The notes beneath the pieces were generated by a model that ran no database searches, was not told the DNA's origin, and worked only from the letters and a program-made list of their open reading frames with translations. Positions 1-11,704 of a DNA stretch of 11,704 bases are shown one piece after another; the first letter of the stretch is position 1; each line of letters begins with the position of its first letter. The position numbers and the translations under genes were made by a program. Source of the DNA: a bacterium (GTDB lineage: Bacteria > Acidobacteriota > Blastocatellia > HR10); the NCBI GenBank assembly GCA_041640655.1, contig JBEPZV010000066.1:1-11704 (forward strand). Reading direction: 5' to 3'.

Positions 1-1124
1 TGGTGCAGGCGCTGCTGGCGTCGGGGAACGAGACCTTCTATCGCGAGGAGGCCGGACGCCGGTTCTACTTCGATCCGGCGGACGCGAGATATCGCGAGGA
101 GGAGCAGCCTCCCGGCCTCGTGCTCCTCTCCACCCTGAAGGCGCAACATCGTCTCATCCGCTCCAATCCGGGAGCGAGCCTCATTGATCTCGGCGATGGC
201 GTCGCGTGCGTGGAATTCCACTCGAAGATGAACACCATCGGCGCAGATACGGTACAGATGCTGCAATATGCGCTCGAGCGCCTCGCCGAAGGGGAATTCG
301 AGGGATTGGTCATCGGGAATCAGGGCGAGCATTTCTCGGCCGGAGCGAACCTGATGCTCCTGTTGCTCGCGGCTGAGGAGGAAGAGTGGGACGAGCTGGA
401 TCTGATGATCCGCGCGTTTCAGCGAACGAACCTGGCGCTGAAGTATGCGGCGCGTCCGGTTGTCGTCGCCCCGTTCGGCCTGACGCTCGGCGGAGGGTGC
501 GAGATCACGCTCCATGCGCCGAAGGTGCGCGCCGCGGCCGAGACCTACATCGGATTGGTCGAGACGAGCGTCGGATTGATCCCGGCTGGCGGAGGGACGA
601 AGGAGATGCTCCTGCGAATGCTCGAGCGCGCGCCGCGGGGAGACGCGGTGGATCTCTTCCCCTATGTCCGACAGGCGTTTGAGACGATCGCCCTGGCGAA
701 GGTCTCCGGCAGTGCGCACGAAGCGAAGCGAATGGGTCTGCTGCGTCCGAGCGATGCCATCACGATGAATCGCGATCGGCTCATCGCCGATGCAAAGGCG
801 ACGGTGCTGGCGCTCGCGCGCGAGGGGTATGAGCGCCTCGCTCCCCCCGCAGAGATCCCCGTGCTCGGCGAACCGGGGCTGGCGGCGCTCAAACTCGGCA
901 TCCACTTGGCGTGGCGCGCCGGACAGATCACCGAGTACGATGCGCACATCGGGCGGAAGCTCGCCTGGGTGCTCTGCGGCGGCGATCTGCGAACGCCGCG
1001 CGCGGTGACCGAAGACTATCTGCTCGATCTGGAGCGCGAGGCCTTCCTCTCGCTGCTGGGCGAGCCCAAGACGCGCGAGCGCATCCGCCACATGCTCACC
1101 GAAGGGAAACCGCTCCGGAATTGA
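1..1124 (+). CDS. fadN: 3-hydroxyacyl-CoA dehydrogenase/enoyl-CoA hydratase (FadN/YusL type), C-terminal crotonase part; 5' end outside window
   Basis: Open frame from the window edge to TGA at 1122-1124. Crotonase motifs FSAGANL, GGGCE and ETSVGLIPAGGG; C-terminus LLDLEREAFLSL...GKPLRN typical of FadN; directly upstream of thiolase and acyl-CoA dehydrogenase. Confidence 0.93.
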   Translation, partial: VQALLASGNETFYREEAGRRFYFDPADARYREEEQPPGLVLLSTLKAQHRLIRSNPGASLIDLGDGVACVEFHSKMNTIGADTVQMLQYALERLAEGEFEGLVIGNQGEHFSAGANLMLLLLAAEEEEWDELDLMIRAFQRTNLALKYAARPVVVAPFGLTLGGGCEITLHAPKVRAAAETYIGLVETSVGLIPAGGGTKEMLLRMLERAPRGDAVDLFPYVRQAFETIALAKVSGSAHEAKRMGLLRPSDAITMNRDRLIADAKATVLALAREGYERLAPPAEIPVLGEPGLAALKLGIHLAWRAGQITEYDAHIGRKLAWVLCGGDLRTPRAVTEDYLLDLEREAFLSLLGEPKTRERIRHMLTEGKPLRN

Positions 1125-1163
1125 GGCGAGCGATCGAACGTCCGTTACGCGAAGGAGGAAGAC

Positions 1164-2348
1164 ATGATGCGCGAAGCGGTGATCGTCGCAGCGGTGCGAA
1201 CAGCCGTCGGAAAGGCGCCCAAGGGAACGCTGCGCCACATGCGTCCGGACGACATGGCGGCCGTCGTGCTGGCCGAAGCCGTGCGCCGCGTCCCCGGACT
1301 GCATCCGGAGGAGATTGACGACATCATCCTCGGATGCGCCATGCCCGAAGGGGAACAGGGCATGAACGTCGCGCGCATCGCCGCCTTGCGCGCCGGCTTC
1401 CCCTATACGGTGCCGGCCATGACGGTGAACCGATTCTGCTCCTCGGGCCTGCAAACGATCGCGCTGGCGACGGAGCGGATCGCCGCGGGATTCGCCGAGG
1501 TGATCCTGGCCGGAGGGACGGAATCCATGTCGCTCGTCCCCATGGGGGGGTATAAGATCGCGCCCAATCCTTACCTCATCGAGCATTACCCAGACGCTTA
1601 TCTGAGCATGGGCCTGACGGCCGAGAACCTCGTCCGCAAATACGGCATCTCGCGCGAGGAACAGGATCGCTTCGCGCTGCGCAGCCATGAGCGCGCCATT
1701 GCGGCCATTGATGCTGGGAAGTTCCGAGATGAGATCGTCCCGCTGCGCGTCCCCATCGAGGAGATGGACGAACGCGGCCGCCCGCGCGTGCGGGAGATCC
1801 TCTTCGATACGGATGAGGGGCCGCGCCGCGATACCTCGTTGGAGGCATTGGCGAAACTGAAGCCGGTCTTTCACGTTGAAGGCACGATCACAGCCGGCAA
1901 CTCCTCGCAGATGAGCGATGGGGCGGCAGCCGTCGTCGTCATGTCGCGCGAGAAGGCGGAGGCTCTCGGCGTCCGGCCTCTGGGGCGACTCATCGCCTAC
2001 GCCGTCGCCGGCGTCCCTCCGGAGGAGATGGGTATCGGGCCGGTCGCCGCGATCCCCAAAGCGCTGCGCATGGCGGGACTGAGCCTGGACGATGTGGACC
2101 TGATCGAGTTGAACGAAGCCTTCGCGGCTCAAGCTCTGGCCGTCATCAAGCTCCTGGAGCTGGACGTGAATAAGATCAACGTCAACGGCGGAGCGATCGC
2201 CCTCGGCCATCCGCTCGGGTGCACGGGAGCGAAGCTGACCGCGACCCTGCTCTACGAGATGCGACGCCGAGGCGCCCGCTACGGCATGGTCACCATGTGC
2301 ATCGGCGGCGGCATGGGCGCGGCTGGGATCTTCGAGCGCCTACAATGA
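1164..2348 (+). CDS. fadA: Acetyl-CoA C-acyltransferase (3-ketoacyl-CoA thiolase)
   Basis: Thiolase motifs NRFCSSG (catalytic Cys), NEAF, GHPLG and CIGGGMG. Shine-Dalgarno AAGGAGG at 1152-1158; start is ATG 1164 or 1167. Confidence 0.96.
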
Positions 2349-2377
2349 GCGCATAACGGCGAAGGAGGAGACACGCT

Positions 2378-4162
2378 ATGACGAGACCTGAAGACGAGCG
2401 GATCAAAGGCGGCAGTTTCCTGATTCGTGAGGCCTCGCCCGATGAGGTCTTCACACCGGAAGATTTCACCAACGAGCACCGGATGATCGCGCGCACGGCC
2501 GAAGAGTTCATGGAGCGCGAGGTCGTGCCCCAGGCCGAGCGAATCGAGCATCAGGATTTGGAGCTGATGGTCGAGCTGCTGCGGCGCGCGGCCGAGGTGG
2601 GGTTGCTCGCGGCCGAGATCCCCGAACGTTACGGCGGATTGGGCCTGGATAAGGTGAGCGCGATGATCATCTCCGAGAAGCTCGCGGCCAACAGCTCCTT
2701 CGCCGTCTCTCACGGCGGGCATACGGGGATCGGCACGGCGCCCATCGTCCTCTTCGGCACGGTGGAGCAGAAGCGGAAATATCTCCCCAAGCTCGCCAGC
2801 GGCGAATGGCTCTCGGCCTATGCCCTCACCGAGCCCGAAGCCGGATCGGACGCGCTGGCCGGCAAGACGCGCGCCGATCTCGCCCCCGATGGCCGCCACT
2901 ATCTGCTGAACGGCTCGAAGATGTGGATCACTAATGCCGGATTCGCCCACATCTTCATCACCTTCGCCAAGGTCAACGGCGAACATTTCTCCTGTTTCAT
3001 CGTCCATCGGGATACGCCGGGGCTGACCATCGGCCCGGAGGAGAAGAAGATGGGCATCAAGGGCTCCTCGACACGAGCCCTTCTGTTCGAGAACGCGCGC
3101 GTGCCTGCCGAGAATCTGCTCGGCGAGATCGGCAAAGGGCATAAGATCGCCTTCAATGTCTTGAACCTCGGCCGACTTCGGCTGGGCGCCAGTTGCGTGG
3201 GGGGATGCAAGATCGGTCTGACGGCGGCTCTTCAATACGCGAAGCAGCGTCGCCAGTTCGGTCGCCCCATCTGCGAATTCGGTCTGATCAAGCATAAGCT
3301 CTCGGAGATGGCCATCCGAACCTGGGTGGCCGAGAGCGCCGTCTATCGCACGGCGGGCCTCATTGACGCTGCGCTCTCAGGGCTCGACGAAGATGACCAA
3401 CCGGCGCGCATGCAAGCCGTCGAGGAATACGCCATCGAGTGCGCGATCAATAAAGTCGTCGGGAGCGAGTTCGCCGATTACGTCGCCGATGAGGCCGTCC
3501 AGATCTTCGGCGGGAACGGCTACAGCGCGGAATACCCCGTCGAGCGCTACTACCGCGATGCGCGCATCAATCGCATCTTCGAGGGGACGAACGAGATCAA
3601 TCGTCTGCTCATCACGGGGATGCTCTTGCGGCGGGCCCTCTCAGGCCATTTGCCACTTCTGCCGGCCATCCAGCGGACGATGCAAGACGTGCTCGCCCCA
3701 TCGGCACCCGAGCTCGACAGCGAAAGCCCGCTAGAGCGCGAACGACGTCTGGTCGCTCAGGCGAAGAAGATCGCACTCTTGGTCGCTGGAGCCGCCGCGC
3801 AGAAATATCGCGAGCGCTTGACCGAGGAACAAGAGATCGTCGGCGCCATCAGCGACATGGTCATCGAGATCTTCCTCATGGAGAGCGCCCTGCTGCGCGT
3901 CCTGAAGCTGAGCGCGCGGCGCGGTCCGGAGTCATGCGCCGTGCAGCAGGACATCGCCCGCACGTACATTCACGACGCGATGGGGCGGATCGAGTTGCTC
4001 GCCCGTCAGGCCGTGAGCGCGCTCGCCGAAGGCGATGAGCTGCGCCTGCAGTTGGCGGCCCTGCGTCGCCTGTCCAAGTTCACCCCGATGAACACAATCG
4101 CCGCTCGACGCCGTATCGCCGACGCGCTCATCCAAGCCGGACGGTATATGTTGAGCGAGTGA
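2378..4162 (+). CDS. fadE: Acyl-CoA dehydrogenase, long (~590 aa) FadE/YusJ type
   Basis: YALTEPEAGSD, NGSKMWITN, KMGIKGSST, RRQFG, QIFGGNGY, IFEGTNEI (catalytic Glu); N-terminal KGGSFLI...FTPEDF and C-terminal extension as in YusJ-like enzymes. SD AAGGAGG at 2362-2368. Confidence 0.95.
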   Translation: MTRPEDERIKGGSFLIREASPDEVFTPEDFTNEHRMIARTAEEFMEREVVPQAERIEHQDLELMVELLRRAAEVGLLAAEIPERYGGLGLDKVSAMIISEKLAANSSFAVSHGGHTGIGTAPIVLFGTVEQKRKYLPKLASGEWLSAYALTEPEAGSDALAGKTRADLAPDGRHYLLNGSKMWITNAGFAHIFITFAKVNGEHFSCFIVHRDTPGLTIGPEEKKMGIKGSSTRALLFENARVPAENLLGEIGKGHKIAFNVLNLGRLRLGASCVGGCKIGLTAALQYAKQRRQFGRPICEFGLIKHKLSEMAIRTWVAESAVYRTAGLIDAALSGLDEDDQPARMQAVEEYAIECAINKVVGSEFADYVADEAVQIFGGNGYSAEYPVERYYRDARINRIFEGTNEINRLLITGMLLRRALSGHLPLLPAIQRTMQDVLAPSAPELDSESPLERERRLVAQAKKIALLVAGAAAQKYRERLTEEQEIVGAISDMVIEIFLMESALLRVLKLSARRGPESCAVQQDIARTYIHDAMGRIELLARQAVSALAEGDELRLQLAALRRLSKFTPMNTIAARRRIADALIQAGRYMLSE

Positions 4163-4316
4163 ATCGCCCTGCCGTCTGGCATCCTCAACGTGAGGGTCGT
4201 CCCACCCGTCCATGAGGCGCGGAACGCTGATGGTTCGCCCCCTTGCACGGAATCCTCGGTGGTTTCGCGCTCCGGGCGATTATACGGACTGGGGCTCATC
4301 GCCTTTAAGGGGGAAT

Positions 4317-4392
4317 TGGCTCCTCAGGGAGGACTCGAACCTCCAACCCGCCGGTTAACAGCCGGCCGCTCTGCCAATTGAGCTACTGAGGA
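4317..4392 (-). tRNA. tRNA-Asn (anticodon GTT), 76 nt, CCA encoded
   Basis: Reverse complement TCCTCAGTAGCTCAATTGGCAGAGCGGCCGGCTGTTAACCGGCGGGTTGGAGGTTCGAGTCCTCCCTGAGGAGCCA: acceptor stem TCCTCAG/CTGAGGA, anticodon arm GCCGG-CTGTTAA-CCGGC, T-loop TTCGAGT, discriminator G plus CCA. Confidence 0.98.
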
Positions 4393-4406
4393 GCACTGCG
4401 GGTAGT

Positions 4407-4436
4407 AGCGTAGCAAAACGAGCGCGCTTTTGTCAA
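4407..4436 (-). promoter_or_regulatory. Sigma70-type promoter of tRNA-Asn
   Basis: Minus strand: perfect TTGACA (4431-4436), 18-nt spacer, TACGCT (4407-4412) preceded by TGn (extended -10), 14 nt upstream of the tRNA 5' end. Confidence 0.75.
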
Positions 4437-4590
4437 CAGCCATCTCTCATCAGGATTGCCGGCTCAACCCCGCAGCGGTGTCCCGGAGAGCTCAGCCACT
4501 TATGCAAAAGCCTGATCGAGGCGCCAGGCATGATCCCCGGCGCGGAGAGCCGCAGCAGAGCGCTATGGGCAAGACTCTCCCCGATCCACC

Positions 4591-5622
4591 TCACCGCAAA
4601 GCGGCCTTGAGGACTTCCGTCTTCGTCTCCCTCCCGGTCGTGATGTGCCTCACGAAGTAGAGGAATCCATCGCGCCCAACCGCCTGCAAACTCCCCCAAT
4701 CATCCCCCACCGGGATCGGACGAACGCGCGCTCCATCTGGCGAAAGAAGATACAGCATATAGGTGAACGGGCGATGAAGGACCCACGATCCTCCCTTCAG
4801 CTCGCGCTTCTGCAACCGGCTCTCCTGCGCCACGACGGCCAGAAGGAGGTCGCCACCAATGAAGGCGAAGTGATCCACCTCCACCTTCCGACGGCCCCTC
4901 CCCGATCGCTCCACCTGCGCCTTGAGCTCCCCTAAGCTCAGGTCCTGCTCGTCCCACCTTCCTGCCTCCAGGGAGAATCGCTGAAGCCGCAAGGCCTCCG
5001 GATCGAGCCAAAACAGGTCCTGACCTCGGACGATCAGCCGCTGAGCCCGCGAGATCACACGCCCGATCCCCTCCGACTGATCGTTCGGAATCGTGGCCAA
5101 CACCCGCCCATCAGCCCCGATCCGATAAATCCACATGCGGGCTTCGGAAGCCTCGGCTTGTCCAGATGCCCTCGCACCGACCAGGAACACTTCTCCCCCC
5201 TCTGCCGGTTCTACGGCCCGGGCGATGAATTCGGGCACGTCGAAAGAACGACGCAGACGCCCTTCGGCATCGAAGATGAGCCCGCGCGTGACCAACCTGC
5301 CCGGCGTATCCGAGGCCCCACCGATGACCACCAACTCGCCGCTGGGAGCGATGCGAAAATCTATGAACCCCAGCAGTCGCTGCTCTCCGGGCCGCAACTC
5401 GAACACACGCTGGCCATCCGGCCGAAGCTTCACGATCGCCCTCGGAGAGCCCCAATAGAGCATCCCCGCGCGGTCAACCTCCAGATAGAAGAGACGGAAG
5501 CTCTCGGCAAGCACCCTCCGCTCAATGACCACCAGCTCCTGAGGAGAAGCGTGTGGCCACGCCTGACCCCCGAACATCGCGAGGATCACCAGCACATGCC
5601 TCGCTGCGCTTTTGCCCGACAT
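4591..5622 (-). CDS. Secreted hypothetical protein, probable beta-propeller (NHL/6-bladed-like)
   Basis: ATG 5622 preceded by GGAGG (5628-5632). Signal-peptide-like N-terminus (KSAARHVLVILAMFGGQAWPHAS). Recurring blade-like motifs: EVDRAGMLYW, KLRPDGQRV, IAPSGELVV, IFDAEGRL, RIGADGRVL, LLSPDG, VGRDGFLYF. Confidence 0.72.
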   Translation of the reverse strand: MSGKSAARHVLVILAMFGGQAWPHASPQELVVIERRVLAESFRLFYLEVDRAGMLYWGSPRAIVKLRPDGQRVFELRPGEQRLLGFIDFRIAPSGELVVIGGASDTPGRLVTRGLIFDAEGRLRRSFDVPEFIARAVEPAEGGEVFLVGARASGQAEASEARMWIYRIGADGRVLATIPNDQSEGIGRVISRAQRLIVRGQDLFWLDPEALRLQRFSLEAGRWDEQDLSLGELKAQVERSGRGRRKVEVDHFAFIGGDLLLAVVAQESRLQKRELKGGSWVLHRPFTYMLYLLSPDGARVRPIPVGDDWGSLQAVGRDGFLYFVRHITTGRETKTEVLKAALR

Positions 5623-6041
5623 AATCGCCTCCGACAATATCCCCCACCGAAGACCGACCCTCTGTCAGGATCGGCCCCGGAGGGCAAGCAATGTCGCGGT
5701 CATCTTCAGCCCATAATTCTCGGACGATGTTACTCTCCGCACAGAAGAGTGAAGCACAAAGATAAAGATTTTGCCAACATTGTCTACTCCCGAAGGGTAA
5801 GATTACCTCACAAAAGTAATTCGTGCACCGAACCTCCACACACGTTTACTCTCCATCTCTGGGTGGACAACATAAAGTATCTTGCGAGCGTCGTATATCC
5901 GCAGCCTCCTTGAAGCGCCGCCGATCTGGAAGAAGAAAGAGCCCGTGAAGCTGTCGCCGACGGACCCCACGCAATAGATGAAGCTACCAGGACCATCCCG
6001 ATGGCCGCGCCGCGTCGGAGAAACTCTCGCGTCAGGCGCAT
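5522..6041 (-). pseudogene. Small secreted Cys-rich peptide precursor, apparently frameshifted near 5837-5847 (77-aa ORF 5808-6041 plus Cys-rich continuation in another frame)
   Basis: Strong SD GAGGAGG (6050-6056) and ATG 6041. Signal peptide nearly identical to that of the ORF at 10969-11704. After QGG-CG the frame stops at 5808, but a second frame open from 5845 reads TCVEVRCTNYFC...QC...LC...FC...IACPPGP. Confidence 0.55.
5956..6006. repeat. Direct repeat copy 1 (signal-peptide-coding segment); copy 2 at 11654-11704
   Basis: Exact blocks gccgacggaccccac (5956-5970 = 11654-11668) and ccaggaccatcccgatggcc (5987-6006 = 11685-11704), same offset of 5698 nt. Confidence 0.9.
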
Positions 6042-6164
6042 GGCATCAACCTCCTCACGGTCGTTTCACACCACCTTGATGGCCCCAAGTCTACTGTCTG
6101 TCTGTCCAGCCCGTTTCTCACGGGCGGCGGGGGCCGACATGAGGACGGGCCCGACGCGCGCGAC

Positions 6165-6181
6165 CGCAAGGCGTGTTCCAA
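6165..6181 (-). promoter_or_regulatory. Putative sigma54 (RpoN) -24/-12 promoter
   Basis: Minus strand TTGGAACACGCCTTGCG against consensus YTGGCACGNNNNTTGCW; exact GG-N10-GC spacing; intergenic, about 125 nt upstream of ATG 6041, correct orientation. Confidence 0.55.
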
Positions 6182-6470
6182 GCCCCAGTGAACCTCCCCC
6201 CGCTCGCCTATCCGCGCGGGCTTTGGAGAACGCTCCGAGCTTGGCGAATCCAGAGACTTGCGCTACGATTGCCCAGCCTGTCGCACAGGCACTCTCGAAA
6301 CCTGATCTGTGGGGAACAACGCTTGAAACTCGTGGCCGCTTCTCAGGGCGTCTAGGGATCCTGAATCTGCTCGGTGGCGTCTTCGCCGATCGGCGAGCCG
6401 ATACTCCACATGCGTGAGTGCTTCAAGAGGCGATCTCCTCGATGACCCTCCCGGAGAACGGGAGAGCTCC

Positions 6471-7598
6471 TCATCCGCGACGAGCTCGCTCTGACGATCC
6501 AAAGACACGCTGAGACGCAGCGGCCTCAGAGTCGTCCTCAGGGCGAAGGGCACTTGCTGGGGAATGCCCCGCACGAATGTACCCCTGGCGATACCGCAGC
6601 TCCACATCTTTATATCTCTTCTTCGCCTGCGGCGAGAGCTCAACTTTGATCCGGCGAAGCCGCCCACCGCCGGTGATGTCTGTCGGTTCATAGCCCAGCA
6701 CATACCGCCCTCGGAGATCCTCAATCAATCGAGCGACTGCATCCACCTTCGGCGGCTCCCCCGGCTTGGCAGCCCCCATCCTCCCGCCCGTGATTTCCAC
6801 CAACTCGTCCATCCCAAACCCTTTAAAGAGAGGACGCCCCATCACCCCCCAAATGAACCGAACATAAAAGCGGCTGGTAACAACCCCAAACACCACGATG
6901 TCGCTTTCATAGAGTCGCTCCAGCACCTTCTGCCTGAGCTCTTGCCTCCTCTGCTCACTCATCCTGGGGTCTCCTTCGCCGAGGTTAAACGTGAACACGA
7001 GGAGGGCTCGACGACGCCCTCGTTCACTCGCGTGCAGCATATAGGTCACCGCCTCATAAATCGAGGTCCACAACAGACTATAATGAACATAGTACTCTCC
7101 CCAACATTTCTCCGACTGGTAAAGCTCCCAGCTCCTCTCCTTCGACGCCAGATCCTCCAAGATGTCCAGAATCGCCTCTTTTCGCGTGGTGAACTTTTGG
7201 ACCAGACAGGGGCCCCCCTGAAAGATCATCATCGCCACTTCGTCCTCCGGCCTCAGACGATCCAGGATCACACGAGCGGCACGAGCAACGTTTTCAAAGA
7301 ACCGAGCTTCCACCAGCAAGAGTAGCGACAGGGGGAGATCATCTTGACCGAAAAAGACGATCTTCTGCGGGATGCCTTCGTCGAACAAAACGAAGTCTTC
7401 CTTCCGTAGCCCAGCGACCGGTAAGCCCGTCTTTTTCGCCGTCACGGCAACGGGAACGAGAACGAGATCGGCTTTGAGATGCACGGGCGTTTCTTGAGCC
7501 ATACCACTTCGAGAGATCGGCCAGGCTCGCGAGAGGAGAAACGTCAGAATAATGGCGAGTAACCTCAGCCCTCGTGTCGGGCACGCCTTGATCACCAC
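6471..7598 (-). CDS. VWA domain protein, acidobacterial VWFA-related type, secreted, degenerate MIDAS
   Basis: Signal-like N-terminus; DLVLVPVAVT...G.PVAGLRKEDFVLFDEG.PQKI..F, PLSLLLLV, RRRALLVFT, ITGG, DLRGRYVLGYEP, RRIKVEL, RYRQGY match this family. SD GGAGGT at 7601-7606; GTG start at 7598 or 7595. Confidence 0.88.
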   Translation of the reverse strand: MVIKACPTRGLRLLAIILTFLLSRAWPISRSGMAQETPVHLKADLVLVPVAVTAKKTGLPVAGLRKEDFVLFDEGIPQKIVFFGQDDLPLSLLLLVEARFFENVARAARVILDRLRPEDEVAMMIFQGGPCLVQKFTTRKEAILDILEDLASKERSWELYQSEKCWGEYYVHYSLLWTSIYEAVTYMLHASERGRRRALLVFTFNLGEGDPRMSEQRRQELRQKVLERLYESDIVVFGVVTSRFYVRFIWGVMGRPLFKGFGMDELVEITGGRMGAAKPGEPPKVDAVARLIEDLRGRYVLGYEPTDITGGGRLRRIKVELSPQAKKRYKDVELRYRQGYIRAGHSPASALRPEDDSEAAASQRVFGSSERARRG

Positions 7599-7653
7599 CC
7601 ACCTCCCTGATGGATCAGATCAATCATTGTGAAAGGCTACAGGGACAGAGTGC

Positions 7654-7683
7654 CATGCGCAAGTGAGATTGGGCTTGCGCATG
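7654..7683. repeat. Perfect 10-bp inverted repeat with 10-nt spacer (hairpin or operator)
   Basis: CATGCGCAAG-tgagattggg-CTTGCGCATG between the 7726-8403 ORF and the VWA gene; no U-tract on either side. Confidence 0.6.
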
Positions 7684-7725
7684 ACGGGGCTTCCCTGAGC
7701 ACGTCTAAGTCACCCCCTCACCCGA

Positions 7726-8403
7726 TTAGAATAGCACACAGACAAACCGCTCTATGGCGGCCATCGTGATACAGGCGATCTCCGGAATTGTCGAGAGCGG
7801 GCCACACTCACCTTGTACAGTTCTCCAAAAACAGGCCGTGCAACTAACGTCATGACCGCAGTTCGATCCTCCCTGAGCAGATGGCAGAGCTCGTCCCCCC
7901 CAATAAGCGACGCTCACGGCCCGATTCCGCGTGATGATCCCAGAAGTGACTGTGCTGGATAAGGCGGATGGCCAACCTGGCGAGAAGAATCCACCGAGCA
8001 TCCTAAGCGCCACCAAAGCCGAACTTTGCTTCACCTCTTCGTACGGAACCGTCGCTATGAGAGAGCGAAGTGTGAAGAGAATCTCAGAGGCGGTGGAAGA
8101 TCTCACCTGCTCAACGAACGGCCGGTAGCCCGTTCTGATCCGCAGCGCGATATCGAGCTGCCGAGCCAGAGGAATGAGCCGGGCGTCGTCCGCGCCACTT
8201 GCGGCCAGACTTTTCAAGTCGTCTATCAACGATCGCGCTTTTTTGTCCAAGACGAAATGGAACTCGAGTCGGTCAAGCGATAACGTGATTCGAGGGTCTC
8301 TGTCTGTCCCTTGACCTGCTTCTGCTCGGAGGCCAACTCTCATCCGGCTTCGCGACTCGACGATCTGAACATCCATCAGCTCCGGGCAGGGAGAACCCCG
8401 CAT
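7726..8403 (-). CDS. Hypothetical protein with C-terminal six-Cys peptide after QGG; no signal peptide, possibly 5'-truncated
   Basis: 225-aa ORF filling the gap between ABC ATPase and VWA gene, co-oriented. Ends SAQGG-SNCGHDVSCTACFWRTVQGECGPLSTIPEIACITMAAIERFVCVLF. Start uncertain (8403 or 8376), no good SD. Confidence 0.65.
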   Translation of the reverse strand: MRGSPCPELMDVQIVESRSRMRVGLRAEAGQGTDRDPRITLSLDRLEFHFVLDKKARSLIDDLKSLAASGADDARLIPLARQLDIALRIRTGYRPFVEQVRSSTASEILFTLRSLIATVPYEEVKQSSALVALRMLGGFFSPGWPSALSSTVTSGIITRNRAVSVAYWGGRALPSAQGGSNCGHDVSCTACFWRTVQGECGPLSTIPEIACITMAAIERFVCVLF

Positions 8404-8406
8404 CCC

Positions 8407-9297
8407 CTAGCGCTCTTGATCCGTCTCCCTCAGGACGTAGCCGTAGATCTCCTCCAGACTGAGCGCCTCCACCTCGATCTCCACAAGCCCCGCCTCCCTC
8501 ACCCGATCTTCCATCCCCTCCTCCCACTGATCCGTCACCACCTGAACCCATCCTCTACCCTCCTCCTCCACAGCCACCCACTCCCGAAAATCGAGCCGAG
8601 GCTGCCCCACATATCGCCCCCGAATCCGACGCCAGTTTCGCCTCAGTCGCTCGCGACTCTCGATTCGCACCACCTCCCCCCGCCGCAAGAACACCACCCG
8701 ATCCGCCACACCCTCCACATCCGCTAAAATATGCGACGTCACTAAAACCCCGGCCCCCCACTCCCGCACAGCCATCCGCACCAGCTCCACACACTCCCGA
8801 CGCATCCCCGGATCCAACGCCGCCGTCGGCTCATCCAGCAGCAGCAAATCCCCCCTCGAGCTGAACGCCACCGTCAGCCCCAACTGCGCCCGCATCCCCT
8901 TGGACAACTCCCCCACCTTCTTCCTCTCATCCAGCCCAAATCGCCGCATCAACGCCTCAGCCCCCCTCCCATCCCACCTCGGATAGAACGCCGCACAAAA
9001 CCGCAACACATCCCTTACTCGTACTTGCCGAAACAACGGCGCCTCCTCCAGAAAAAATCCCATCCGCCGCTTGATCTCCACCTCGTGCCCCTCCAGATCC
9101 ATCCCCCAACACCGAATCCGACCCCCATCAGGCCTCACCAATCCCAGCACGCACCGCAACAACGTCGTCTTCCCCGAACCGTTCGGCCCCACCACCCCCA
9201 CCACCTCGCCCGAACGAACCCCCAAACTCGCCCGAAGCACAAAATCCCCATATCGCTTCTCCACCCTCTCCACCTCAAGCGCTACCCCGTCACACAT
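8407..9297 (-). CDS. ABC-2 type transporter ATP-binding protein
   Basis: Walker A GPNGSGKTT, signature variant LSKGM, Walker B LLLLDEP, H-loop TSH, C-terminal SLEEIY. ATG overlaps the upstream permease stop (ATGTGTGA). Confidence 0.95.
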   Translation of the reverse strand: MCDGVALEVERVEKRYGDFVLRASLGVRSGEVVGVVGPNGSGKTTLLRCVLGLVRPDGGRIRCWGMDLEGHEVEIKRRMGFFLEEAPLFRQVRVRDVLRFCAAFYPRWDGRGAEALMRRFGLDERKKVGELSKGMRAQLGLTVAFSSRGDLLLLDEPTAALDPGMRRECVELVRMAVREWGAGVLVTSHILADVEGVADRVVFLRRGEVVRIESRERLRRNWRRIRGRYVGQPRLDFREWVAVEEEGRGWVQVVTDQWEEGMEDRVREAGLVEIEVEALSLEEIYGYVLRETDQER

Positions 9298-9331
9298 ACG
9301 ATCCCTTCCGACGGAAGATCCAAACCCCTAC
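9254..9331. repeat. Diverged direct repeat (permease 3' end plus first 15 ATPase codons); second copy at about 10134-10211
   Basis: cgcttctccaccc...tcacacatacga...cttccg...gaagatc...cccta aligns without gaps at offset 880; encodes RKGSYV*/MCDGVALEVERVEKR versus RKRSYV*/MCEGMALEVEGVEKR. Confidence 0.88.
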
Positions 9332-10177
9332 ACAGAGAGTCAGAAGTGAAAGCCCCAAAAGAACCGCACCCACAAAAAACTGCCCTCTCACCGAAAAGAG
9401 GAAGGCCATGAGTTCCCACAAATGAGGTTCTAAAAGCGCCTGCACCTTCTCCTCGATGCGATCCGAGAGCAGGAGGAATCCCGGAAACTGCAGGCCTACA
9501 AATAGAGCCGCAATCATATAGCCGAGCACCGTCGGCGAATTCACGTTCATCGCGATCGTCAGCACAAGTGATGCGGACAACAAGGACATCACGAGGGTCA
9601 TCCACCCTACGGTGAAGGAGACAAGCGCCGAGGGAGCACCTTGCCCGATTAGGGTGAGCACAGCGACTGCAAATCCCGGCAAGGCTGAAACGAGAGAACC
9701 AATGACAGCAGCCAATACCGTTCCGAGAAAAAGAGCTTCCTTGCTGAGCGGGAGCACGCAAAGAAGCTGAAAAGATCCCTCCGCCTTCTCCCGGTGAATC
9801 ACGGCGGCCATTCCAAAGGGTACAATGATGGCCGCTCCCAGGGAAAAGACAGCCGCGAAGGAGAGCGAGAACCATGCCGACAAAGGCGGCTCCAACGTAA
9901 TGGAGAAAGCGAGCACACCCACCGCAAAGATGCTGAGGACTCCCAGGAGAACGAACATCATTCGCCGACACTGATGATCATCGAGAAGATAGTGCCTGAT
10001 GATTTCTTTCACCATCGGTGCCATGCACAGGTCCCCTATTTCGCCATAGAGCATACGACAAACGATCTCTCTGGGAAAGCCACTGAAACTCTGGCACAGC
10101 ACGTCCCGACGCCCACGAATGCCTCTCTCCTCCCGCTTCTCCACCCCCTCTACCTCCAATGCCATCCCTTCACACAT
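9290..10177 (-). CDS. ABC-2 type transporter permease, copy 2 (alternative start ATG 10024)
   Basis: About six hydrophobic segments; HREKAEGSFQLLCVLPLSKEALFLG matches the ABC-2 permease cytoplasmic loop motif; paralog of 10170-10931. The first 15 codons from 10177 copy the ATPase start; ATG 10024 has an AGGGG SD-like motif. Confidence 0.85.
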   Translation of the reverse strand: MCEGMALEVEGVEKREERGIRGRRDVLCQSFSGFPREIVCRMLYGEIGDLCMAPMVKEIIRHYLLDDHQCRRMMFVLLGVLSIFAVGVLAFSITLEPPLSAWFSLSFAAVFSLGAAIIVPFGMAAVIHREKAEGSFQLLCVLPLSKEALFLGTVLAAVIGSLVSALPGFAVAVLTLIGQGAPSALVSFTVGWMTLVMSLLSASLVLTIAMNVNSPTVLGYMIAALFVGLQFPGFLLLSDRIEEKVQALLEPHLWELMAFLFSVRGQFFVGAVLLGLSLLTLCVGVWIFRRKGSYV

Positions 10178-10931
10178 ACGACCTCTTCCGCGTGAAGATC
10201 TGAAGCCCTACAAACAGAATAAGAAGCGAAATCGCGAAGAGCATCGCCGCTGCCAGGAGTCGCCCTTCCACAGAAAGCGCAAGTTGAGTGAGTGCCTCAT
10301 CCAGAGGTGAAAGCACTCTCGCTTTGACGCGTTCTGGAAGGAGGGGTAAGATGGCTCCTGGGTATATCCCAAGAACGAGGAAGAAGATGACCACGTAACC
10401 GAGCACCGTCGGCGAATTCACGTTCATCGCGACGGTCATCATGAGCGAAGAGGACAAAAAGGACACCAGCAGGTTCGCCAACCCTAGGTAGGGTAAGAAG
10501 TTCCACTGCCCACCCCCTGCTGATAGAGTCAAGGCCAGGATCCCAATTACGTATCCCGGCAGAAACGCAATCACTGAACCTACAATCCCAGCCAGGACGG
10601 TTCCAAGGAAAAGCGTCCTCTTGGAGATCGGTAGCGCACAAAGGAACCCAAAGGAGCCTTCTGCCTTCTCTCGGTGAACGGACGCGGTTAGCATAAGAGG
10701 AGCGCCAAAACCGGTCCCGAGGCACGAACTGAACAACGTGATCCACAAAAACAGAGCCCCCCTTTCCCCTCGCCCGACAATGAGTGCAGTTGCGACGACG
10801 ACCATCAGGCTGAAGACACCTACTAGAGCCAATACGGATCTCCGACACGGGCGGTCGTCAAGCAGGTAGTGCTTGAGGATCTCTTTCGCAGCTCTGCCCC
10901 TGACAAACATCGCTAGCAGTATACATCTCAC
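10170..10931 (-). CDS. ABC-2 type transporter permease, copy 1 (likely start ATG 10910)
   Basis: About six hydrophobic segments; HREKAEGSFGFLCALPISKRTLFLG motif; shares HYLLDD..CRR and AMNVNSPTVLGY with the downstream permease. Confidence 0.87.
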   Translation of the reverse strand: MRCILLAMFVRGRAAKEILKHYLLDDRPCRRSVLALVGVFSLMVVVATALIVGRGERGALFLWITLFSSCLGTGFGAPLMLTASVHREKAEGSFGFLCALPISKRTLFLGTVLAGIVGSVIAFLPGYVIGILALTLSAGGGQWNFLPYLGLANLLVSFLSSSLMMTVAMNVNSPTVLGYVVIFFLVLGIYPGAILPLLPERVKARVLSPLDEALTQLALSVEGRLLAAAMLFAISLLILFVGLQIFTRKRSYV

Positions 10932-10946
10932 AGCCCGCCTGGTGAA
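10918..10946 (-). promoter_or_regulatory. Possible sigma70 promoter giving a leaderless permease mRNA
   Basis: TTCACC (10941-10946)-17 nt-TATACT (10918-10923)-7 nt-ATG (10910, in frame); no clear SD before that ATG. Confidence 0.35.
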
Positions 10947-10968
10947 AGATCAGGCCAACCGGCGTCAA

Positions 10969-11704
10969 TCAAGAGAGACACTCATCGCATGCAAGGACTA
11001 ACGAAATAGCGGCAATCCGGGACCCAACCAATGCCAGAACACAGCCTACGCCAAGAGTGGCACCACAACTAAAAAATAGACTGGCAACGCTTACTCCGTA
11101 ACCGGCGGCGGCAAGTCCGCATTCGAGCCACGAGCAGCCTGCTGCCATGACCTCCGGTAGGAATAAAGAGGCACTGCTGACAGGCCCTTGAGGAAGAGCA
11201 GCTTTCGCCGTTTGGACGAACCTCTGGGCCTCGCGAATCAGAGGAGCCATTCGACCCCTTTGCAACCCTTCAATGATGTGAAGGAGCCGAGGGAAATCCC
11301 TTTCAAGCTGTACTTCGCTGTCACTGATTGTTACCTCCTCGGGACCAAAGCCGATGGAGCTGAGTTGGAAGTAAGTGCATCCACCCAAATCGTGACCCGA
11401 TAGGCGGAGGGTGAAACGCTCCAGGCTGTGGCGCAGCTCAAGGACGCCGCCCGTCCGTCTCAATTCCGCGTGAAAGTCAAGCTCACCCTGTTCGCTATGG
11501 CGGTAGGACGCCATCACCTCCACACCTCCCTGGATCGGCTCTGCGACAATATCCATCACTTCCCAAGCCCCATTCTGCGATCGGAACAGGCGCACCGCCT
11601 TCTCCCCCATCGGGGTGACCGACACCTGCCCAGGCTGAGGCCGGCTTGACCGGGCCGACGGACCCCACAGGACAGACGAGGCCGCCAGGACCATCCCGAT
11701 GGCC
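10969..11704 (-). CDS. Secreted precursor-like protein with C-terminal 55-aa hydrophobic six-Cys hairpin (bacteriocin-like); 5' end outside window
   Basis: Frame open to the window edge (AIGMVLAASSVLWGPSA = signal peptide h/c region, homologous to the 6041 ORF). Beta-rich then helical middle domain, Pro/Ser linker, then AAG-CSWLECGLAAAGYGVSVASLFFSCGATLGVGCVLALVGSRIAAISLVLACDECLS. Confidence 0.8.
   Translation of the reverse strand, partial: AIGMVLAASSVLWGPSARSSRPQPGQVSVTPMGEKAVRLFRSQNGAWEVMDIVAEPIQGGVEVMASYRHSEQGELDFHAELRRTGGVLELRHSLERFTLRLSGHDLGGCTYFQLSSIGFGPEEVTISDSEVQLERDFPRLLHIIEGLQRGRMAPLIREAQRFVQTAKAALPQGPVSSASLFLPEVMAAGCSWLECGLAAAGYGVSVASLFFSCGATLGVGCVLALVGSRIAAISLVLACDECLS

Follow-up and report, generated by a model that had tools for sequence, protein, structure and literature searches.

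Among the described systems that resemble the locus analysed here, halocin C8 of Natrinema is produced as a precursor of 283 amino acids (aa), ProC8, which carries a signal peptide, is exported by the twin-arginine translocation (Tat) pathway and is cleaved to HalI, an immunity protein from the N-terminal part, and the C-terminal peptide HalC8 of 76 residues. Three ATP-binding cassette (ABC) genes, halT1-3, are located downstream of the ProC8 gene, and relatives of halocin C8 are fused to Rhs repeats, the bacterial homologues belonging mainly to Bacillota (passages of the preprint 10.64898/2026.07.27.741052). The text of the preprint contains 0 occurrences of Acidobacteria, and our literature searches found no bacteriocin of this kind in Acidobacteriota. 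The window analysed in the present study is the whole contig C66 (11,704 bp) of the metagenome-assembled genome of a hot-spring acidobacterium (G000; 3.1 Mb in 128 contigs, 89.8% complete; other G numbers denote relatives and P numbers database proteins). Between positions 4591 and 11704 it contains three genes related to secreted Cys-rich proteins, here called cargos 1 to 3, each followed by a different partner gene. We give about even chances to the interpretation that this region is a rearranging array of three modules, each consisting of a secreted Cys-rich protein and a dedicated partner. Judged by analogy, module 1 is most likely a polymorphic bacteriocin and the only module that looks functional in this genome.

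According to the list of open reading frames (ORFs), every gene from 11704 down to 4591 is located on the minus strand. The three co-oriented ORFs described in the original prediction were found there as stated (10969-11703, 7726-8403 and 5808-6041/5522-5839), and a re-count confirmed the six cysteines at the ends of cargos 1 and 2. The different partners it had assigned were recovered as well: ABC-2-like permeases with an ABC ATPase follow cargo 1, a VWA protein follows cargo 2 and a 348-aa, weakly propeller-like protein follows cargo 3. The comparison of gene neighbourhoods that it had suggested revealed that the linkage between cargo and partner recurs in related genomes for all three pairs, so the pairing is not due to chance. 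The proposed repeated array of precursor and partner thus stands as far as the conservation of the pairs is concerned, whereas only cargo 1 is plausibly functional here.

Cargo 1 (“preA”; 10969..11704, minus strand) encodes a secreted protein, the 5' part of the gene being cut off by the contig end. The end of C66 and the start of contig C59 share 10 identical nucleotides (nt), and the leader and upstream region matches C59:1-142 to 90.8%. Because of this overlap and homology the two contigs were joined, which results in a protein of 256 aa starting with an ATG at C59:45. No contig of four public sequencing runs bridges this joint, the unitigs ending 10 nt beyond the window. Relatives of cargo 1 are few, 13 being found among 5.8 billion proteins, and homologues were detected in two of 40 related genomes. 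AlphaFold 2 (AF2), run on a 16-sequence alignment, predicted a nine-strand beta domain and two helices with a predicted local distance difference test score (pLDDT) of about 80-90, followed by a C-terminal helical hairpin with a score below 50.

This C-terminal hairpin (10972..11139, minus strand) is a hydrophobic module of 56 residues which, within the family, is exchanged independently of the N-domain. Identities of N-domain and C-module were compared for 66 pairs of the cargo 1 family. P0007 and P0010 are identical in all 142 N-domain residues and share 29% of the 59 positions of the C-module; P0008 and P0010 share 97% and 27%, and P0002 and P0006 90% and 39%, respectively. The reverse pattern was observed for the window copy and P0002 (N-domain 37%, C-module 70%). 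The switch point coincides with a conserved EVLAxGC junction. The exchangeable cargo originally predicted is therefore present in this family in the form of C-terminal variability.

A HMMER scan of 1.84 billion representatives yielded 27 matches at E <= 0.001. Nine of them are family members or fragments thereof, while the remaining 18 have other N-regions and, in 17 cases, align only from profile position 158 on. Six Cys columns are invariant in 18 diverse sequences (C-x6-C-x17-C-x7-C-x17-C-x5-C), and the window copy has exactly these six cysteines. A Foldseek search with the cargo 1 model gave no match in the PDB at E <= 0.001, a PDB sequence search with the module profile gave nothing at E < 0.2, and a tblastn search with P0024 against plasmids gave no match. 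Wide VIA-align matches to the low-confidence C-module were discarded as uninformative, since they were generic helical hairpins only (Z <= 9.6).

Within the phylum the module occurs in five of 401 genomes, G000 included. In G297 it forms the C-terminal end of a 787-aa protein, following RHS repeats (PF05593, 4.9e-49) and DUF6531 (3e-14); the first half of the module is visible in this copy and has the identical spacing C-x6-C-x17-C-x7-C. In G338, G355 and G180 the module terminates secreted proteins of 235-242 aa (that of G355 being incomplete at the contig start), and a protein of 95-166 aa with 2-4 hydrophobic segments is encoded directly after the module gene. G005 has a cargo 1 of full length, which bears another leader and is followed by one permease and an ATPase 59% identical to that of the window. 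Genes of the ABC-2 type are thus found downstream in two loci and small membrane proteins in three. By analogy, a variable module that is shared with Rhs proteins and adjoined by small membrane proteins or ABC-2 genes may reflect the arrangement known from polymorphic toxins and bacteriocin loci, in which a secreted toxin is accompanied by a gene for protection.

The partner genes of cargo 1 encode the ABC-2-like permease A (10170..10931, minus strand; 253 aa, six hydrophobic segments; PF12679, 1.5e-3, below the cut-off), the ABC-2-like permease B (9290..10177, minus strand; likely true start 10024; PF12730, 4.6e-4) and a 296-aa ABC transporter ATPase (8407..9297, minus strand; PF00005, 5.5e-26). 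The permeases share 43% identity. A 143-nt direct repeat, D1 (9254-9396 and 10134-10276, 72%), indicates that they arose from a duplicated permease-ATPase unit, and about 15 codons of an ATPase gene start persist at 10134-10177, before permease B. The best NCBIfam match of the ATPase was PmtA, involved in the export of phenol-soluble modulins (3.7e-49; 167.5 bits, below the cut-off of 350); the model of lantibiotic protection ATPases was matched as well (1.6e-30; 106.4 bits, below the cut-off of 309.75). Weak GldF/GldA-type matches were also among the NCBIfam results for the ABC genes. The GC skew over the ATPase gene is very strong at 8501-9500 (-0.55 and -0.44), far beyond that of the remaining window.

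In the relative G002 a type-2 cargo 1 remnant without leader is followed by a piece 96.5% identical to permease B, not by permease A; its reading frame is interrupted after about 60 codons and continues into that of a transposase at the contig start (L013, G002:C24, 1-640); from the look of its sequence we take this transposase to be IS256-like. The G005 permease is almost equidistant to both permeases of the window (38.7% to A, 36.5% to B). The co-variation of permease and module type in these two loci hints that each permease may serve one type of module.

Cargo 2 (“preB”; 7726..8403, minus strand) is a 5'-truncated copy with a six-Cys tail at 7729-7863. Its full-length relatives (G002, G004, G008, P0015 and P0017) have 306-351 aa, in which a leader is followed by a beta-rich region, helices, a linker rich in Ser/Thr and the six-Cys tail, which differs in G008. 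In G000 the homology to the full-length gene begins at 8383, 3 nt past the stop codon of the ATPase gene, so that the leader and about 88 N-terminal residues are missing and the originally predicted precursor does not seem to work here. The structural model of cargo 2 was too poor for a structure search (mean pLDDT 42.8), and the ESM Atlas contained nothing named for it. G002 is the mirror image of G000, since its cargo 2 is intact and its cargo 1 leaderless. Truncated cargo copies beside intact partners are thus found in G000 and in G002, a decay resembling that of toxin loci.

The partner of cargo 2 (6471..7598, minus strand) is an acidobacterial VWA protein (TIGR03436, 8.8e-33; 114.1 bits, above the cut-off of 81.25; aligned from 2 to 321 of the 324 profile positions) with 90% protein identity to its G002 counterpart. 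The orthologous gene is located next to cargo 2 in all four loci with visible downstream DNA (G000, G002, G004 and G008), a count that leaves aside G010, where cargo 2 runs off its contig. The VWA fragments are closest to the VWA protein of the window (72.6% and 50%, compared with at most 48.7% and 39% for paralogues). A general rule placing Cys-tail proteins upstream of VWA genes was rejected, as the 13 further sites of VWA paralogues in G000 included no convincing example. A further leader-bearing protein of 237 aa with a Cys-rich tail is encoded in G008:C49 (L015) at 240-953, 2.5 kb upstream of the cargo 2 homologue.

Cargo 3 (“preC”; 5522..6041, minus strand) is a pseudogene that has retained its leader. 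Two lesions set it apart from the intact G002 and G005 genes, namely a deletion of 14 nt between 5892 and 5891 and a CAA>TAA substitution that creates a stop at 5848-5846. The contigs of each of the four runs carry both lesions, although the runs are possibly not independent of the source. The broken reading frame had been recognised in the original prediction, but two repairs are required instead of one frameshift correction, and the intact orthologues have ten cysteines rather than eight. Nor is cargo 3 a large precursor with a C-terminal peptide as had been assumed: in G002, G005, G007 and G010 the intact gene encodes a leader and a small Cys-rich protein with a mature part of about 100 residues. 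Judged from these lesions and from the truncation of cargo 2, the cargo genes of modules 2 and 3 are inactive in this genome, the modules themselves appearing to be pairs analogous to module 1.

The gene following cargo 3 (4591..5637, minus strand; likely start 5622) encodes a secreted protein of 348 aa. The evidence for a propeller consists of weak phmmer matches to designed propellers (E = 0.001 and 0.0078) in one stretch of ~36 residues. Orthologues were detected in eight of 41 relatives, the G002 protein being 90% identical. Cargo 3 precedes this gene in five of seven loci inspected and is absent in G001 and G006. The structure prediction of peptide and downstream partner that had been suggested for such pairs was run for the intact G002 cargo 3, yielding a complex score of 0.80 compared with 0.19 for the best control. 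By rough counts, as our own alignments were used, a score of 0.80 was reached by 116 of 157 solved complexes and by two of 215 mismatched pairs. The runs agreed in at least 87% of contacts and the pLDDT of the partner was at least 72. In the predicted complex, residues 279-284 of the partner pair as a strand with residues 102-107 of the cargo. Intact cargo 3 of G002 is therefore predicted to bind its propeller-like partner.

The three cargo families, otherwise unrelated, have one promoter and leader in common, as the originally proposed constant export leader implied. The first 40 residues of cargo 1 share 32 positions with P0015 of the cargo 2 family and 26 with the cargo 2 of G002, and 24 of its first 30 residues are shared with cargo 3. 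The similarity of the leader DNA that had been noticed within the window was confirmed (5956-6006 versus 11654-11704, 84% over 51 nt, reaching the contig end). No kinship of the cargo 1 and cargo 2 families was found by hhalign outside the leader (probability 5%).

Upstream of cargo 3 we identified a promoter-like element with GACA repeats (6088..6112, minus strand), in which (GACA)3 at 6095-6106 is followed by TAGACT. The motif ggcTTGACA(GACA)nGTATACT occurs in ten copies in G000 with n = 3 to 8 (contigs C2, C19, C25, C32, C36, C51, C54, C59, C66 and C91; the C66 copy being that at 6095-6106). Eight of these copies, including those of cargos 1 and 3, have an ORF with 4-12 cysteines within 9-54 nt downstream. 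The element precedes cargo 1 (on C59), cargo 3 and the cargo 2 of G002, and n varies between copies and genomes. One extra CTGT at window position 6093 was found in contigs of the four runs, both forms occurring within one run.

The comparison with related genomes points to a rearrangement at this site. The window from 3090 to 6138 is collinear with G002:C12 (92.6%), where a gene for a TlpA-like protein, the GACA promoter, cargo 3 and the propeller-like gene directly adjoin one another, and the order is identical in G005. Two direct copies of promoter and leader enclose a 5.6-kb block (6140-11704) in G000, which neither G002 nor G005 has at this site; located in the block are cargo 1, the ABC genes, cargo 2 in its truncated form, the VWA gene and a fragment of a gene for a small membrane protein. 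This 5' fragment, together with a copy of the upstream element, occupies 6140..6390 (no strand assigned), and the window from 5987 to 6390 matches G002:C24 3618-4034 to 82.6%. A three-way alignment placed the rearrangement junction after the VWA gene at a microhomology of about 12 nt near 6362-6375. A joint between the two leader copies was found in no contig of the four runs, although contigs cannot show rare forms. In the deepest run, X4, loose ends were observed at 6200 and 6390, some contigs exiting at 6390 into sequence similar to the intact small membrane-protein gene of G002, and a minor form with a joint 6279>6361 skips 81 nt (depth 33 compared with about 3200). These alternative contigs indicate that other arrangements coexist in the community.

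The TlpA-like gene just upstream of the GACA promoter at this site (G000:C59:122-757, L019 373-966, L020 3061-3669) encodes in each case a thiol-disulfide oxidoreductase of the TlpA/AhpC-TSA-like type with a membrane anchor; for the one in G002, AhpC-TSA was matched with 9.5e-15. This enzyme could help to oxidise or isomerise the Cys-rich cargos. A second locus of a similar kind is present on G000:C2 (57417-60610), where a GACA promoter precedes a 97-aa leader-bearing ORF overlapping a 101-aa ORF with ten cysteines and a hydrophobic hairpin, followed by genes for a secreted protein of 271 aa, for an ABC ATPase sharing 45% identity with that of the window and for an ABC-2 permease. The GACA loci at C19:19290-21428, C25:21579-23360 and C51:8519-10438 share a partner family of ~600-700 aa with 24-25% identity, and genes that look NHL- or propeller-like by eye are located downstream of Cys-rich ORFs on C25 and C91.

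According to the mechanism which we propose, all three modules would be under the control of copies of a single GACA-repeat promoter and a single export leader. Cargo 1 would be a carrier exported by the Sec or Tat pathway and composed of the beta-rich N-domain and helices, whose end, a hydrophobic helical hairpin of ~56 residues stapled by three disulfides, would act as the membrane-active toxin part. TatC is encoded in the genome. The two ABC-2 permeases and the ATPase would expel the peptide and protect the producer, permease B possibly being a left-over protection gene for a second type of toxin. Modules 2 and 3 would follow the same plan with a Cys-rich cargo binding a periplasmic partner, the cargo being dead here and the partners kept. 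The disulfides, the cleavage, the toxicity, the protection by the ABC system and the roles of the VWA and propeller-like partners we infer. A further extension appears rather doubtful to us, namely that the GACA promoter and the first 27-40 leader codons form a portable expression-export cassette and recombination handle, that exchange among the approximately ten copies moves toxin-protection modules, and that changes in repeat length switch the sites. The disulfide-stapled toxins, each provided with a dedicated partner for binding or pumping, would together make up an arsenal that is phase-variable and needs no integrase.

Several observations weigh against a bacteriocin array. The family is rare (five of 401 phylum genomes). 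The module of cargo 1 has a pLDDT below 50 in the AF2 prediction, so that we can only infer its disulfides and cleavage. The halocin C8 domain model TIGR04449 (halocin_C8_dom) gave no match in G000 and matched none of 20 cargo 1 family members at E <= 10, and PF22862 (Hac8_like_N) was not found in the window, its two matches in the genome lying on other contigs with E = 0.43-0.47. The co-variation of permease and toxin is ambiguous, as it was seen in two loci only. Furthermore, the propeller-like gene of G005 (L020, G005:C5) has an in-frame TAG at codon 272, where G000 and G002 have CGG, while the cargo 3 gene upstream of it is intact; the pair therefore fits poorly to an indispensable immunity gene. 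We know of no VWA or propeller-like protein that is established as bacteriocin immunity. Finally, if TTGACA and TATACT are taken as promoter boxes, the spacers at the present loci have 9-13 nt (9-29 nt across the ten GACA copies, none having 17), and the genes may therefore be silent.

Alternatively, the Cys-rich proteins may be secreted signals or ligands, with the propeller-like and VWA proteins as periplasmic receptors and the ABC system exporting or importing the peptide. The specific binding predicted for cargo 3 and its partner is consistent with this, as are the leader-bearing cargos behind a promoter family with variable repeats and the loss of only one member of pair 3, be it cargo or partner, in G000, G001 and G005. 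However, no signalling domain was detected in the partners and no kinase or sigma gene in the window by Pfam and NCBIfam, the cargo 1 module resides on an Rhs toxin and beside small membrane proteins, and its swapping is typical of conflict genes. We consider a signal-receptor system unlikely. Quite improbable, in our view, is that the hairpin of cargo 1 serves as a two-helix membrane anchor tethering a periplasmic domain that belongs to the ABC-2 transporter as an accessory subunit, with cargos 2 and 3 as unrelated neighbours. The hairpin has indeed two overlapping, strongly hydrophobic windows, cargo 1 adjoins ABC-2 genes in G000 and G005, and the GldF/GldA-type matches point to ABC systems with accessory proteins. 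An anchor is, however, at odds with the location of the same module at an Rhs C-terminus and with the three of four distant phylum homologues that adjoin a small membrane protein and no ABC genes. Furthermore, helix 2 bears E/R or H/P residues, and the positions of the six invariant cysteines, in the loop and at either end, fit a hairpin that is stapled and either soluble or insertable.

The region might also be a recombination scar of decaying, dead genes in a metagenome-assembled genome that have no present function. In favour of this are the two broken cargos out of three, the visible rearrangement junctions, the duplicated permease and the ATPase remnant accompanying it, an insertion sequence element in the G002 copy and promoter spacers that look too short. 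Against this stand the open and conserved genes of cargo 1, both permeases, the ATPase, the VWA protein and the propeller-like protein, the last two retaining the high identity to G002 given above. Taking furthermore into account that the pairs are still found in relatives of family or order level with identities as low as 41-50% and that the sequence is identical in the contigs of the four runs, we regard mere leftovers as very unlikely and prefer the array of secreted Cys-rich proteins with dedicated partners.

Upstream in the letters of the window, at 3-4162 on the plus strand, are three ORFs which, named from their translations alone, we take to be genes of fatty-acid beta-oxidation, encoding the C-terminal part of a hydratase/dehydrogenase, a thiolase and an acyl-CoA dehydrogenase. 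A scan with Pfam and NCBIfam gave zero matches for cargos 1-3 and the propeller-like protein, and the relatives of these proteins in large protein collections are called hypothetical or have blank names and Pfam labels throughout.

If the bacteriocin interpretation is true, a disulfide-stapled hydrophobic hairpin would be new among toxin modules, carried by small secreted proteins as well as by Rhs proteins, and archaeal precursors of the halocin C8 type would be linked to bacterial polymorphic toxins in their mode of working. The combinations of a Cys-rich cargo with a propeller-like partner and of a Cys-rich cargo with a VWA protein are two new candidate protein pairs. A shared promoter and leader could, if the proposed exchange is true, shuffle secreted cargo between loci in thermophilic communities.

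Cargo 1 differs from halocin C8 in the number of cysteines, the module having six conserved ones and HalC8 ten. In the ESM Atlas, neighbours of cargo 1 named “halocin C8 precursor-like” had scores of 0.84-0.86 and neighbours carrying PF27906 (Gpos_C8-like) scores of 0.84-0.85 with 148-160 shared features, both of which are leads only. As far as the passages of the preprint describe ProC8, cargo 1 has the same architecture, namely a signal peptide, an N-domain, a hydrophobic Cys-rich C-terminus and downstream ABC genes. Both are secreted precursors of about 260-280 aa with N-terminal domains of similar size, both end in a hydrophobic Cys-rich peptide of 56-76 residues, both are directly followed by three ABC genes, and domains related to either are fused to Rhs repeats. 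The analogy to halocin C8 that had been drawn in the original prediction thus holds for architecture and gene order, whereas TIGR04449 and PF22862 remained unmatched. Cargo 1 may accordingly work like halocin C8.

The ABC-2 exporters that provide self-protection, LanFEG and PmtABCD, likewise combine one ATPase and ABC-2-like permeases beside a hydrophobic secreted peptide. In contrast to them, the ATPase of the window scores far below the curated NCBIfam cut-offs and its permeases match ABC-2 models only weakly. As had been noted before, no RiPP-type (ribosomally synthesised and post-translationally modified peptide) modifying enzyme and no C39 peptidase or peptidase-transporter was detected by Pfam or NCBIfam among the nine ORFs of 4591-11704.

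The polymorphic toxins of the Rhs and CDI (contact-dependent inhibition) type resemble the cargo 1 family in their conserved N-part and the abruptly variable C-module, which begins here at the EVLAxGC junction and is illustrated by the three pairs with 100/29, 97/27 and 90/39% identity. Further common features are the partner gene directly downstream, the 5'-truncated toxin copies beside intact partners and the occurrence of the cargo 1 module on an Rhs protein itself. Unlike the giant filaments or shells of those systems, the carrier of cargo 1 is small and bears a signal peptide, and no type V, VI or VII secretion system (T5SS, T6SS, T7SS) was found in the window. Moreover, the apparent handle for recombination differs, as it seems to comprise the 5' promoter and leader as well as the junction before the module.

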